From NCBI GenBank assembly GCA_951406725.2, contig OX597825.1:46500001-46564000 (forward strand): 64,000 bases of DNA, written 5' to 3'. The DNA comes from Octopus vulgaris. Taxonomy: Eukaryota. Made by a program: the position numbers and the translations under genes. This document shows, one piece after another, positions 29,094 to 55,779 of the stretch. The first letter of the stretch is position 1. The number at the start of each line of letters is the position of its first letter. The notes under the pieces were generated by a model. That model was not told the DNA's origin. It made no database searches and was given only the letters and a program-made list of their open reading frames with translations.

Positions 29094-29722
29094 CAGTAAT
29101 TCTTTCATCATCATCATCATCATCATCAATAATAATTCTTTCATCGTCTCATCATTGTTAGTAATTCTGTCATCATTAGTGGTAATTCTTTTATTTCCAT
29201 CATCGGTAGTATTTCTTTCATCATCATCATTGGGAGTAGTTCTTCCTCATCATCATTATCTTCATTATTGAAAGTAATCCTTTCATCATTGGTAATAATT
29301 CTGTCATCATGGGTAGTAATTATTTCATCGTCATCATTGGTAGTAATTCTTTCATCATTGTCATCATCAGTAGGAATTCTATCATCATCAGTCATAATTC
29401 TTTTAGCATCATCATCAGTAGTAATTCTGCCATTATTGTTATCATCGGTAGTAATTGTGTCATCATTTGTAGTAATTCTTTCATCATCATTATTGATAGT
29501 AATTTTGTTATCATATCATTGTTTTCGGTGGTAATAATTCTGTCATCATTGATAGTAATTCTCTCATCATTGTTATCAAAGGTAGTAATTCTTTCATCAT
29601 TGTCATCATTGCTAGTAATTCTTTTAGCATAATAGTAACTCTTTTATTATCATGACTAGTAATTCTGTCTTGTTAGCATCTGTAATAATTCTTTCATCAT
29701 CAGTAGTAATTATTTCAATGTC
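29094..29722. repeat. Degenerate (ATC)-rich minisatellite, unit ~gtagtaattctttcatcatcat
   Basis: More than 20 imperfect copies. The same repeat resumes at 55515-55610. Confidence 0.85.
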
Positions 29723-29958
29723 ATCATCATCATCGTTTAACGTCCGTTTTCCGCGCTAGCACGGGTTGGACGGTTTCGACCGGGGTCTGGGGAGCTCGGG
29801 ACTGCCCCAGGCTCCAGTCTAGTCTGGCAGTGTTTCTACAGCTGGATGCCCTTCCTAACGCCAACCACTCCGCGAGTGTAGTGGGTGTTTTTTACGTGCC
29901 ACCTGCACAGGTGCCAGAGGGGTCTGGCATCGGCCACGTTCGGATGGTGCTTTTTTTA
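29721..29958 (-). mobile_element. RTE-tail SINE-like element (CpG-rich, apparently young copy)
   Basis: (CAT)n plus gtttaacgtccgttttccgcgctagcacgggttggacgg, homologous to 7626-7860 and 1873-2130. Confidence 0.85.
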
Positions 29959-30174
29959 TGTGGGGGGGGGTGCAGAAATATAGGGGAGCACCAGTGGGGA
30001 GGGGTGGTTCAGAGAAATGATGACAGGTTCTAGGCAAGTAGAACGTAGGATATCGAGAGAGGGGTAATGCATGGTGAAATAGCGTATTGAAGAGGGGGGT
30101 TCGAAGAGTAGACACCTATAATGGTGGTGGGAGAAGCGACATCCGGTATAGATGGAGCAAAATATAGAGATATC

Positions 30175-30249
30175 CGGTATTGGTGGTGGTGGTGGGAGTG
30201 GGCAGGGCGAGTGCACCGCGAAGATACAAAGTTTGATTTTAGACGAATG

Positions 30250-30281
<32 letters not shown>

Positions 30282-30411
30282 GAAATTAGATAGATAGAGA
30301 AATTTGATAAATAGTTAGACAGATAGAGAAACATAAATAAATGGTAGCCGAAGTGAAAAAATTAAGCATTCAACTTCTCTGCGCTCAGGACTACGGCTTG
30401 TAGATGAATGA

Positions 30412-30461
<50 letters not shown>

Positions 30462-30688
30462 ATGTGTGTATTAGAGGGGACATACTTCAAGACGGCGCGA
30501 AGATACGAAGATTGATTTTAGACGAATGAAGATAGATAGATAGATAGAGAAATTAGATAGATAGAGAAATTTGATAAATAGTTAGACAGATAGAGAAACA
30601 TAAGAGGGAGTATCCGGTGTAGATGGTGAGAACAGTGTTCACCGGTATTGGTGGTGGTGGTGGGGGTGGGAGGGCGGGCGCACCGCGC
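30175..30688. repeat. Purine-rich linker with two internal direct duplications and (GATA)n/(GA)n tracts
   Basis: ~30218-30335 resembles ~30497-30603, and ~30175-30220 resembles ~30642-30688. Confidence 0.8.
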
Positions 30689-31566
30689 ATTGAGAAAAGA
30701 TGAGGTTTTTAGGCGGCAGAAAGAAGACAGGATTGAGATGAAATGCTTTGCGGTGGTGTGAATAAGTTTTTGTGAGTGAAAGTTTTTATGCTTCAGCTAG
30801 CATTTGAGACGAAAGACAACGATATGGGAATACAATAATAATAAGGCTTGCAAAAACAATGAAAAGAGGAAACAGGTCGGGAACTTAGCTGATGTTTTTT
30901 CTTCCTGCGGTATTGGCTAAGCCTGTGGAAGCGAGTGAAGGTGAGATATATACCGGAGAGAGAGAGAGAGAGAGAAAGACATAGTGACACCGCGCATTGG
31001 GAAAAGATGAGGTTTTTAGGCGGCAGAAAGAAGACAGGATTGAGATGAAATGCTTTGCGGTGGTGTGAATAAGTTTTTGTGAGTGAAAGTTTTTATGCTT
31101 CAGCTAGCATTTGAGACGAAAGACAACGATATGGGAATACAATAATAATAAGGCTTGCAAAAACAATGAAAAGAGGAAACAGGTCGGGAACTTAGCTGAT
31201 GTTTTTTCTTCCTGCGGTATTGGCTAAGCCTGTGGAAGCGAGTGAAGGTGAGATATATACCGAGAGAGAGAGAGAGAGAGAGAAAGACATAGTGACACCG
31301 CGCATTGGGAAAAGATGAGGTTTTTAGGCGGCAGAAAGAAGACAGGATTGAGATGAAATGCTTTGCGGTGGTGTGTATAAGTTTTTGTGAGTGAAAGTTT
31401 TTATGCTTCAGCTAGCATTTCAGACGAAAGACAACGATTTGGGAATACAATAATAATAAGGCTTGCAAAAACAATGAAAAGAGGAAACAGGTCGGGAACT
31501 TAGCTGATGTTTTTTCTTCCTGCGGTATTGGCTAAGCCTGTGGAAGCGAGTGAAGGTGAGATATAT

Positions 31567-31633
<67 letters not shown>

Positions 31634-52551: not shown

Positions 52552-53755
52552 ACCGCGCATTGGGAAAAGGTGAGGTTTTTAGGCGGCAGAAAGAAGACAG
52601 GATTGAGATGAAATGCTTTGCGGTGGTGTGAATAAGTTTTTGTGAGTGAAAGTTTTTATGCTTCAGCTAGCATTTGAGACGAAAGACAACGATATGGGAA
52701 TACAATAATAATAAGGCTTGCAAAAACAATGAAAAGAGGAAACAGGTCGGGATCTTAGCTGATGTTTTTTCTTCCTGCGGTATTGGCTAAGCCAGTGGAA
52801 GCGAGTGAAGGTGAGATATATACCGAGAGAGAGAGAGAGAGACATAGTGACACCGCGCATTGGGAAAAGATGAGGTTTTTAGGCGGCAGAAAGAAGACAG
52901 GATTGAGATGAAATGCTTTGCGGTGGTGTGAATAAGTTTTTGTGAGTGAAATTTTTTATGCTTCAGCTAGCATTTGAGACGAAAGACAACGATATGGGAA
53001 TACAATAATAATAAGGCTTGCAAAAACAATGAAAAGAGGAAACAGGTCGGGAACTTAGCTGATGTTTTTTCTTCCTGCGGTATTGGCTAAGCCTGTGGAA
53101 GCGAGTGAAGGTGAGATATATACCGAGAGGGAGAGAGAGAGAAAGAGAGAAAGAGAGAGAGAGAGACATAGTGACAACCGCGCATTGGGAAAAGATGAGG
53201 TTTTTAGGCGGCAGAAAGAAGACAGGATTGAGATGAAATGCTTTGCGGTGGTGTGAATAAGTTTTTGTGAGTGAAAGTTTTTATGCTTCAGCTAGCATTT
53301 GAGACGAAAGACAACGATATGGGAATACAATAATAATAAGGCTTGCAAAAACAATGAAAAGTGGAAACAGGTCGGGAACTTAGCTGATGTTTTTTCTTCC
53401 TGCGGTATTGGCTAAGCCTGTGGAAGCGAGTGAATTTAGATATATACCGAGAGAGAGTGAGAGAGAGAGAGAGACATAGTGACACCGCGCATTGGGAAAA
53501 GATGAGGTTTTTAGGCGGCAGAAAGAAGACAGGATTGAGATGAAATGCTTTGCGGTGGTGTGAATAAGTTTTTGTGAGTGAAAGTTTTTATGCTTCAGCT
53601 AGCATTTGAGACGAAAGACAACGATATGGGAATACAATAATAATAAGGCTTGCAAAAACAATGAAAAGAGGAAACAGGTCGGGAACTTAGCTGATGTTTT
53701 TTCTTCCTGCGGTATTGGCTAAGCCTGTGGAAGCGAGTGAAGGTGAGATATATAC

Positions 53756-53790
<35 letters not shown>

Positions 53791-54065
53791 GTGACACCGC
53801 GCATTGGGAAAAGATGAGGTTTTTAGGCGGCAGAAAGAAGACAGGATTGAGATGAAATGCTTTGCGGTGGTGTGAATAAGTTTTTGTGAGTGAAAGTTTT
53901 TATGCTTCAGCTAGCATTTGAGACGAAAGACAACGATATGGGAATACAATAATAATAAGGCTTGCAAAAACAATGAAAAGAGGAAACAGGTCGGGAACTT
54001 AGCTGATGTTTTTTCTTCCTGCGGTATTGGCTAAGCCTGTGGAAGCGAGTGAAGGTGAGATATAT

Positions 54066-54104
<39 letters not shown>

Positions 54105-54379
54105 GTGACACCGCGCATTGGGAAAAGATGAGGTTTTTAGGCGGCAGAAAGAAGACAGGATTGAGATGAAATGCTTTGCGGTGGTGTGAATAAGTTTTTG
54201 TGAGTGAAAGTTTTTATGCTTCAGCTAGCATTTGAGACGAAAGACAACGATATGGGAATACAATAATAATAAGTCTTGCAAAAACAATGAAAAGAGGAAA
54301 CAGGTCGGGAACTTAGCTGATGTTTTTTCTTCCTGCGGTATTGGCTAAGCCTGTGGAAGCGAGTGAAGGTGAGATATAT

Positions 54380-54426
<47 letters not shown>

Positions 54427-54701
54427 GTGACACCGCGCATTGGGAAAAGATGAGGTTTTTAGGCGGCAGAAAGAAGACAGGATTGAGATGAAATGCTTTG
54501 CGGTGGTGTGAATAAGTTTTTGTGAGTGAAAGTTTTTATGCTTCAGCTAGCATTTGAGACGAAAGACAACGATATGGGAATACAATAATAATAAGGCTTG
54601 CAAAAACAATGAAAAGAGGAAACAGGTCGGGAACTTAGCTGATGTTTTTTCTTCCTGCGGTATTGGCTAAGCCTGTGGAAGCGAGTGAAGGTGAGATATA
54701 T

Positions 54702-54742
<41 letters not shown>

Positions 54743-55514
54743 GTGACACCGCGCATTGGGAAAAGATGAGGTTTTTAGGCGGCAGAAAGAAGACAGGATT
54801 GAGATGAAATGCTTTGCGGTGGTGTGAATAAGTTTTTGTGAGTTAAAGTTTTTATGCTTCAGCTAGCATTTGAGACGAAAGACAACGATATGGGAATACA
54901 ATAATAATAAGGCTTGCAAAAACAATGAAAAGAGGAAACAGGTCGGGAACTTAGCTGATGTTTTTTCTTCCTGCGGTATTGGCTAAGCCAGTGGAAGCGA
55001 GTGAAGGTGAGATATATACCGACAGAGAGAGAGAGAGAGAGAGAGACATAGTGACACCGTGCATTGGGAAAAGATGAGGTTTTTAGGCGGCAGAAAGACA
55101 GGATTGAGATGAAATGCTTTGCGGTGTTATGTGAATAAGTTTTTGTGAGTGAAAGTTTTTGTGCTTCAGCTAGCATTTGAGACGAAAGACAACGATATGG
55201 AAATACAATAATAATAAGGCTTGCAAAAACAATGAAAAGAGGAAACAGGTCCGGAACTTAGCTGATGTTTTTTCTTCCTGCGGTATTGGCTAAGCCTGTG
55301 GAAGCGAGTGAAGGTGAGATATATACCGAGAGAGAGAGAGAGATAGAGAGACATAGTGACACCACGCATTGGGAAAAGATGAGGTTTTTAGGCGGCAGAA
55401 AGAAGACAGGATTGAGATGAAATGCTTTGCGGTGGTGTGAATAAGTTTTTGTGAGTGAAAGTTTTTATGCTTCAGCTAGCATTTGAGACGAAAGACAACG
55501 ATATGGGAATACAA
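30681..55514. repeat. Tandem satellite array: ~76 monomers of ~284 bp conserved core plus variable (GA)n
   Basis: The core cgcgcattgggaaaagatgagg...gaaggtgagatatataccg-(ag)n-acatagtgacac recurs about every 270-400 bp with few substitutions. The copy number is a manual count. Confidence 0.98.
43147..43246. other. Assembly gap (100 N) inside the satellite array
   Basis: Run of N. True array length is therefore unknown. Confidence 0.99.
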
Positions 55515-55779
55515 ATCATTGGTAGTAATTCGTTAATCATTGTCCTCATCTGTAGTAATTTGTTTCATCATTGTTATCATCTTCATCAGCAGTAATTCTT
55601 TCATCATTGGTCTCAAGGGCCATGAAAAGCATATAGTACAATGTGAGGACAAAGACAGTGATGATTTATATAAAATCATGTAAACAATAAAAAAAAAATA
55701 ACAATCGACAAACAATTCTAACAAATTCCCCAGTGGGTACTAAAGAAGAGTTAGGCTAATATTAAAAACTGAGTTGTAA

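Follow-up and report, generated by a model that had tools for sequence, protein, structure and literature searches.

A satellite array inside an octopus minisatellite and the dispersed, RTE-tailed family to which it probably belongs

How does a tandem array of about 25 kb come to lie inside a single locus-specific minisatellite, and is such an arrangement peculiar to one locus or characteristic of a family? The question is raised by a 64-kb stretch of Octopus vulgaris DNA (contig OX597825.1, positions 46,500,001 to 46,564,000 of the forward strand), hereafter the window, which belongs to a genome of 2.8 Gb in 227 contigs and within which all positions are given unless a contig is named. The answer that we regard as probable is that positions 29723-55514 are one copy of a family without open reading frames (ORFs), built of monomers, a linker, an RTE-type tail and a terminal (GAT)n, which was inserted into the minisatellite and was likely written by the reverse transcriptase (RT) of an RTE element acting in trans. 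A minus-strand, RTE-tailed retro-insertion truncated inside a monomer had been proposed from the letters of the window alone, and this original prediction is supported by the family structure, the truncation and the match between the flanks.

A dispersed family and its monomers

A genome-wide search with the linker gave 1214 candidates, and on examination of the best 40, at 94-100% identity, the tail was found in every one, 39 times adjacent and once inverted (L004); monomers of the window type (M1) were reached in 25 of these 40 loci, with at least 10 monomers in 3. From the monomer side, 25 distinct M1 loci were identified among 150 listed of 169 matches, and the tail is present at 23, the other two being small contigs cut on the tail side. 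The linker is of an older form at L076, L077 and L079 and absent at L078. That other arrays would be attached to the same tail and linker had been anticipated and is borne out from both directions, and monomer loci standing free of tail and linker were not seen, the two tail-less loci being contig-cut. Neither of the other outcomes named beforehand as refuting was encountered, with long reads across the gap and the left junction in other samples outside the comparison. At least 40 genome copies of the tail are 100% identical over 216 nt among the matches listed, and the arrangement is confirmed as a young, widespread family and not a one-off. The window array was considered as the source of short sister copies and rejected, because its private linker changes are missing from the covered parts of L002, L004, L006 and L024.

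The copies start with (CAT)n and their far ends are scattered, which is the pattern of a fixed 3' end and variable 5' truncation, and most contain 0-5 monomers. At 88 distinct tail sites the (GAT)n count has a median of 8 repeats (range 3-17), and AT-dinucleotide tracts occur at 46 of these sites as against 9.9% of background windows. The 5' part is inverted in L004 (205 nt of tail, then inverted monomers and linker), L080, L191, L193 and L300; a test of L080 and L300 showed that neither is a mirror copy (identity 0.24 and 0.28). Inverted 5' parts are the twin-priming pattern of L1. No common head of the tRNA, 5S or 7SL type was found beyond the monomers in the copies examined, where full-length copies may hide in gaps, and on this observation the family is not a classical short interspersed nuclear element (SINE).

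The tail and linker are shared by monomers of quite different kinds. Among 40 listed loci with a 100% identical tail, 30 were read for monomer type, giving M1 in 2, M2 in 5, M3 in 11 and M4 in 4, together with 8 linker-only loci that stop within or just after the linker. The units measure 233-239 bp in M2, 373 bp in M3 and ~357 bp or more in M4, and the junction with linker A falls at one and the same linker end in every type. M1 and M2 have no body similarity to other monomers; M3 and M4 share two short stretches. When the search was made from the monomer side, the full tail lay ~260 nt from the first monomer in 26 of 29 M2 and 9 of 9 M4 loci, the remaining three M2 loci being cut by a gap, cut by a contig end and provided with a shortened tail, respectively. 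At least four different tandem monomers therefore stand on an identical tail and linker, each of them in long arrays. At L188 a further unit, M5, follows linker A and is 74% like the unit M0 (see below) at its start, possibly representing a fifth monomer subfamily.

The longest M1 array, on contig C31, spans 42 kb in 109 units and is free of gaps (L061-L064 and L081, G000:C31:7.000-7.042 Mb); that in C55 comprises 49 pieces over 17 kb, and those in C2 and C4 reach at least 37 and at least 25 units before ending at gaps. Long M2 arrays of 37 and 28 units are gap-free, the long M3 array has at least 23 units and the long M4 array 16. Head-to-tail arrays of 5-42 kb with array-specific haplotypes are satellite traits. 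In the C31 array the first and last monomers share old variants and the centre is of the common young type, which makes it a candidate old source locus. Two M2 array pieces lying 59 kb apart in opposite orientation (L284 and L285, G000:C24:47.74 and 47.80 Mb) each end at a 100-N gap and are possibly one array split by scaffolding.

Two further copies lie close to the window array. To the right of the window, ~10 kb from the array end, a copy in the same orientation has the tail, the linker and half an M1 monomer (L143:1619-2690), and L004, at a distance of 225 kb (G000:C12:46.303-46.305 Mb), combines the derived monomer type of the window with its inverted 5' part. No description of the family was found in the literature, where subscription journals were mostly outside the scope. 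It may be contained, unnamed, in Repbase, Dfam or the repeat library of PMC13282606; that paper lists 893 unclassified active SINE families, and no mention of satellites was found in it.

The insertion and its target site

The target in the window is a degenerate, locus-specific minisatellite of 21-30 bp units, to which no strand is assigned; its left part occupies 29096-29722 and it resumes at 55515-55615. The element between them lies on the minus strand. Its 3' end, (GAT)n, reads (CAT)4 on the plus strand (29723-29734), and a possible target-site duplication of at most 5 nt is inseparable from this CAT tail. The tail proper (29735-29957; 223 nt) is homologous to the 3' untranslated region (UTR) of an RTE-like long interspersed nuclear element (LINE) and includes one 63-bp repeat unit. 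Linker A (29958-30245) is common to all monomer subfamilies, is likely a tether-like 5' segment and forms a 156-bp tandem repeat of its own in the M3 subfamily. Linker B/C (30215-30680) comprises ~1.5 copies of a ~300-bp unit, M0, which is tandem in other copies (L027, L029), and linker C repeats the far end of linker A at 80% identity; the whole linker up to 30680 is purine-rich.

The M1 array follows, with monomers of a ~275-bp core and a variable (GA)n spacer. Its left part (30681-43146) has 39 monomers and its right part (43247-55514) 38, so that 77 monomer matches are spread over 30681-55514, the last of them broken at about position 155 of the monomer, as expected of a 5' truncation. Ancestral-type monomers, with the long spacer, occur mainly at 43.4-48.3 kb, in the right part. 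The order of (CAT)n tail, purine-rich linker and array ending mid-monomer thus agrees with what had been described; a scaffold gap of 100 N at 43147-43246 (no strand) had gone unmentioned, and because it lies inside the array, 25 kb is not the true array length. As regards coding capacity, the LINE protein matched nowhere between 29.7 and 55.5 kb, and the open frames there are repeat-derived only.

When 29703-29722 is joined to 55515-55531, the product matches the intact unit at 29313-29349 at 35 of 37 nt, exactly as originally noted. When the left cut point was varied, 3 of 615 positions, among them the real one, score at least 35 and ten at least 34, and with the right start shifted by -6 to +15 nt the best junction score is 29; as the minisatellite is self-similar, the 35/37 match is modest evidence. 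Stronger support for the junction comes from the whole genome, in which the left minisatellite has 7 matches, the best outside the left tract being 55515-55615 itself (E 8.6e-12) and the next-best after this right flank having an E-value of 3.5e-7.

Four of 24 listed sequencing runs (X1, X2, X4 and X18) were compared over 55450-56100. In X1 and X2 the contigs pass from the right flank into 22 and 30 nt of monomer, which is the filled site, and a difference from the window at 55629 makes it likely that X1 comes from another individual. Contigs of single-copy depth also cover the right flank in X4 (organism B; 1411 nt) and in X18 (labelled organism A; 1398 nt), where they match it without differences, depart from the window exactly at 55515 and each extend 1045 nt past it. 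An empty allele, for which a search in other individuals or species had been suggested, would look like this from the right side, and X4 and X18 may both carry it. In X1 and X2, but not in X4 and X18, the stretch 55516-55559 is covered by a second contig at single-copy depth. The left unit at 29333 resembles the right flank at 36 of 40 nt, and the second contig is what would be expected, indirectly, if that unit sits on a separate contig. Since X4 and X18 both have a neighbouring contig of 1036 nt, the difference at the site may be one between lineages and not within the species. Summed contig depth over the monomer is thousands-fold above that of the flank in all four runs, X4 too, a figure that does not give a copy number.

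The LINE tail and the role of the monomers

The origin of the tail was traced to a LINE in the same genome. The RT frame of L067 (Pfam RVT_1, E 3e-25) ends just before the 63-bp repeat and a homologue of the tail, and in all 30 LINE loci examined, of 40 matches, such a homologue stands behind the ORF, with best identities of 83-87%; the family tail is homologous to the 3' UTR of this RTE-like LINE. The LINE is young, with at least 40 copies identical over 291 nt among the matches listed, and two of ten extended copies retain an intact single ORF of 1040 aa. Young copies with the intact ORF have a PHD-like finger after the RT (L205, L206, L211), and their 3' UTR carries the 63-bp repeat. Homologues of the ORF contain endonuclease and RT domains, one being named HmRTE-e01 (28%) and two craniofacial development protein-like, and its C-terminal motif is one that we take to be of the RTE type. 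The LINE may accordingly be called RTE-like, a putative clade label drawn from homologues and motifs. Active RTE families are described for octopus in PMC9115989 and PMC13282606.

Other candidates for the partner and origin were tried and rejected. The loci of the top RT matches had the tail as their own 3' end in 0 of 30 cases and represent other LINE families. The family is not a simple internal deletion of the young LINE, the 5' UTR of which lacks M0-M5 and also lacks linker A beyond a match of 22-31 nt. Identity of the tail with MetaSINE was dropped as a lead once the LINE was found; no sequence for a test of it was found in PMC4824008. The window itself has an ordinary truncated copy of the LINE 3' UTR at 7624-8004, with (CAT)n, the tail at 85% and three 63-bp units.

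What the monomers are is suggested by the other end of the LINE. Its 5' UTR contains repeats of its own, of 174 bp in L205 and of ~677 bp with a TATA-like box in L206, and the segment after these repeats matches the segment after the family monomers at 26 of 31 nt, slightly better than 200 shuffles for 4 of 5 queries (scores 38-43 against maxima of 35-38). Tandem monomers followed by a fixed tether, and swapped between subfamilies, are a feature of the monomeric 5' promoter of the L1 type and are present here. As the LINE has 5' monomers and a similar junction, the family monomer is likely an integral, exchangeable 5' promoter unit by analogy. The original prediction had treated it as satellite cargo; monomer swaps and the LINE junction instead make it look like an integral 5' part of the family. 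An element that is regularly truncated would need a promoter that survives truncation, and the monomers would supply one.

The proposed mechanism is as follows. Transcription would start within the monomer array, the monomers acting as putative promoters, and the RNA would run through linker and tail. An RTE protein would recognise the tail and prime at an AT/ATC-rich site, and reverse transcription would proceed until a random drop-off, with a second priming sometimes inverting the 5' part. Subfamilies would arise by replacement of the monomer with retention of linker and tail. The window array would have been long at or soon after insertion, and point changes and a few block duplications would have followed in place.

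Array length, neighbouring elements and known systems

Whether such arrays arrive long or grow after arrival is the more difficult part of the question. Our tentative reading, to which we would give well under an even chance, is that ORF-less RTE derivatives with exchangeable promoter monomers lay down arrays of 5-40 kb, copied from very long transcripts, at the time of insertion or immediately afterwards. Age is no guide to array length. Not one substitution separates the 19 full monomers of the C4 array or the 9 of the C134 array, so assembly error is low; in long M2 and M4 arrays the monomers differ by 0.04-0.64%, and L218, with 4 units, differs from L219, with at least 23, by one substitution in 2.4 kb. 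Sister copies as young as these already number 16-37 monomers and are almost uniform, which makes slow growth from a small number of monomers doubtful. The inverted copies L080 and L300 would imply RNAs of at least 13-14 monomers in a single event. Of 64 substitutions in the window monomers 41 occur only once, whereas steady neutral turnover would give 20% singletons, and no variant exceeds 10 of 75 monomers. This star-like spectrum, with a mean change of 0.66% per monomer and a private linker change of ~0.5% by eye, indicates that the window array was likely many monomers long at or soon after its birth. One long reverse transcript and a fast local burst are both possible sources of this early length.

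An unlikely but serious alternative is that a short retro-copy with one or a few passive monomers was inserted and that the 25 kb grew later by unequal exchange or slippage. Some later block duplication did take place in the window, where monomers 3-5 recur as 8-10 and multi-variant haplotypes repeat at lags of 5, 9, 20 and 52, and this part of the in-place amplification originally proposed stands; a start from one or a few monomers was not borne out. Growth in place would also explain why most shared window variants are private to this array, why the tail and linker, ~970 nt together, show ~5 private changes (by eye), in agreement with the change per monomer, why C31 has a locus-specific block of ~35 variant monomers and why most copies are so short. 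However, long arrays with 99-100% tails have almost no monomer diversity, many monomers were inverted together in L080 and L300, and the variant spectrum of the window is star-like, with ancestral-type monomers in mid-array; a very fast early burst in place is the possible form of such growth. A shared monomer order between long arrays was considered as proof of long copying and set aside, the monomers being too uniform to tell.

Looping of the RT on a circular or slipping template during insertion, so that each array is freshly made in the manner of a retrozyme, appears quite improbable. It would account for the tendency of a single haplotype to fill all monomers of a copy (L221, L218/L219, L308, L315), but uniform source arrays account for this equally well. 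Moreover, the linker-monomer junction is fixed within subfamilies, and the first monomers differ from later ones alike across L300, L303 and L308, which points to a shared linear template. A scan of 29700-31700 (tail, linker and three M1 monomers) for Rfam ribozymes and known RNAs, with E up to 10, gave only a chance match (E 0.23); with no self-cleaving ribozyme in tail, linker and M1, the family is not a retrozyme within that scope. Less probable still is an artefact of assembly, by which unrelated array ends were joined across the gap or the array was over-expanded. The monomer types do differ across the gap and several sister arrays end in gaps. On the other hand, neither flank has a better match than the other anywhere in the 2.8 Gb, one derived monomer type stands at both outer ends, rare haplotypes cross the gap (monomers 14-15 and 66-67) and the right junction is found in the X1 and X2 contigs; the continuity of the flanks, the shared end monomers and these haplotypes argue that the array halves belong together.

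The view of an RTE-tailed family with promoter monomers and arrays that are long from the outset also has several observations to contend with. Identity between the LINE tail and the family tail is no higher than 83-87%. An autonomous element in which tail or linker is exactly that of the family was not found in 30 tail-anchored and 40 linker-anchored loci, of ~1200 candidates each, so that the LINE is at best a candidate for the partner. The similarity to the LINE tether at the junction extends over only 31 nt of C-rich sequence, and segment C of the window ties the shuffle maximum. No clear clustering of 5' ends at a start site is seen, 4 of 26 new M2 ends falling in the predicted 14-nt window (p 0.07) and those of M4 and M1 being scattered, and clear target-site duplications were not found by eye, most sites being (AT)n tracts. 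The putative empty allele of X4 and X18 is deduced from the right side of the site. The window monomers, with a pairwise diversity of 1.27%, are more diverse than one would expect from the flank, which differs from that of X4 at 0 of 446 nt, an outcome with a probability of 0.004-0.03 if flank and monomers are equally old. Finally, the window array is gapped and mixes ancestral and derived monomers, the ancestral type lying in the middle.

Other mobile-element sequences also lie in the window. Broken minus-strand copies of RTE-like LINEs, 30-70% identical to the intact ORF, lie at 136-1095, 3031-5886 and 11015-11561, and decayed transposon frames at 6192-7268, 59131-59577, 8572-10035, 19429-20544 and 28500-29090. 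Judged by their motifs, the latter are presumably pieces of mariner/Tc1-like transposases, an R4/Dong-like C-terminus and L1/Tx1-like RT pieces. No host gene is evident among the window frames. Elsewhere in the genome a second very young LINE family (L108-L130) has many open frames of ~949 aa and a (TTA)n end, and we take it to be CR1-like on its motifs.

How satellites originate and spread among chromosomes has long been debated, mostly on the evidence of old, scrambled arrays. In this family every array retains a tag of its birth, in the form of one tail, one junction and a dated linker, and the window site also has a target that can be rebuilt. The copies, nearly identical and numbering in the hundreds, carry from 0 to over 100 monomers of four types; they make possible a comparison between arriving long and growing in place, and they allow one to ask whether promoter arrays and satellites are one thing. 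Retrotransposition likely plants new satellites across this genome. If our reading of early length is true, satellites would be born full-sized as retrotransposon promoter arrays, long arrays would be stronger sources of copies, and monomer replacement would be an escape from host silencing.

Among known systems, the 5' UTR of mouse LINE-1 (PMC11602158) has tandem promoter monomers and a non-monomeric tether. Tandem 5' monomers of ~0.2-0.4 kb, a fixed tether and subfamily-specific monomers are likenesses to the octopus family; mouse L1, however, is autonomous and averages 2.3-3.7 monomers, whereas the octopus family is ORF-less, has an RTE-type tail and arrays of 16-109 units, and its promoter is putative. 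The monomer-and-tether design known from rodent L1 would thus be extended to a non-autonomous, RTE-tailed family. SVA and SVA2 of primates (PMC3287187) are likewise composite non-autonomous retroposons with a tandem module and are subject to 5' truncations and inversions; they are moved in trans by a LINE, as the octopus family would be. In SVA the repeats are internal and of 36-51 bp, the RNAs measure 0.7-4 kb, the tail is poly(A) and the partner is L1, whereas in octopus monomers of 233-390 bp form the 5' end, occur in at least four types and are followed by a LINE 3' UTR tail ending in (GAT)n.

RTE-related SINEs (PMC6007223) and truncated RTEs (PMC2887409) similarly combine a LINE 3' end with a simple-repeat tail that may guide priming and with an association with microsatellites. 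In contrast to RTE-related SINEs, the octopus family has no tRNA-like head or common 5' end in the copies examined, and its length is set by the monomer array. Retroposons are also connected with dispersed tandem arrays in the SINE-derived satellites of squamates (PMC10702118) and in the tandem SINEs of bivalves (PMC11481361); there a SINE, or a part of one, became tandem after insertion, whereas in octopus the tandem part moves together with the element, the tail is single and the monomer, as tested, is not SINE-derived. By analogy, then, the octopus family may best be likened to an SVA-like composite with a mouse-L1-like 5' end and an RTE-SINE-like 3' end.

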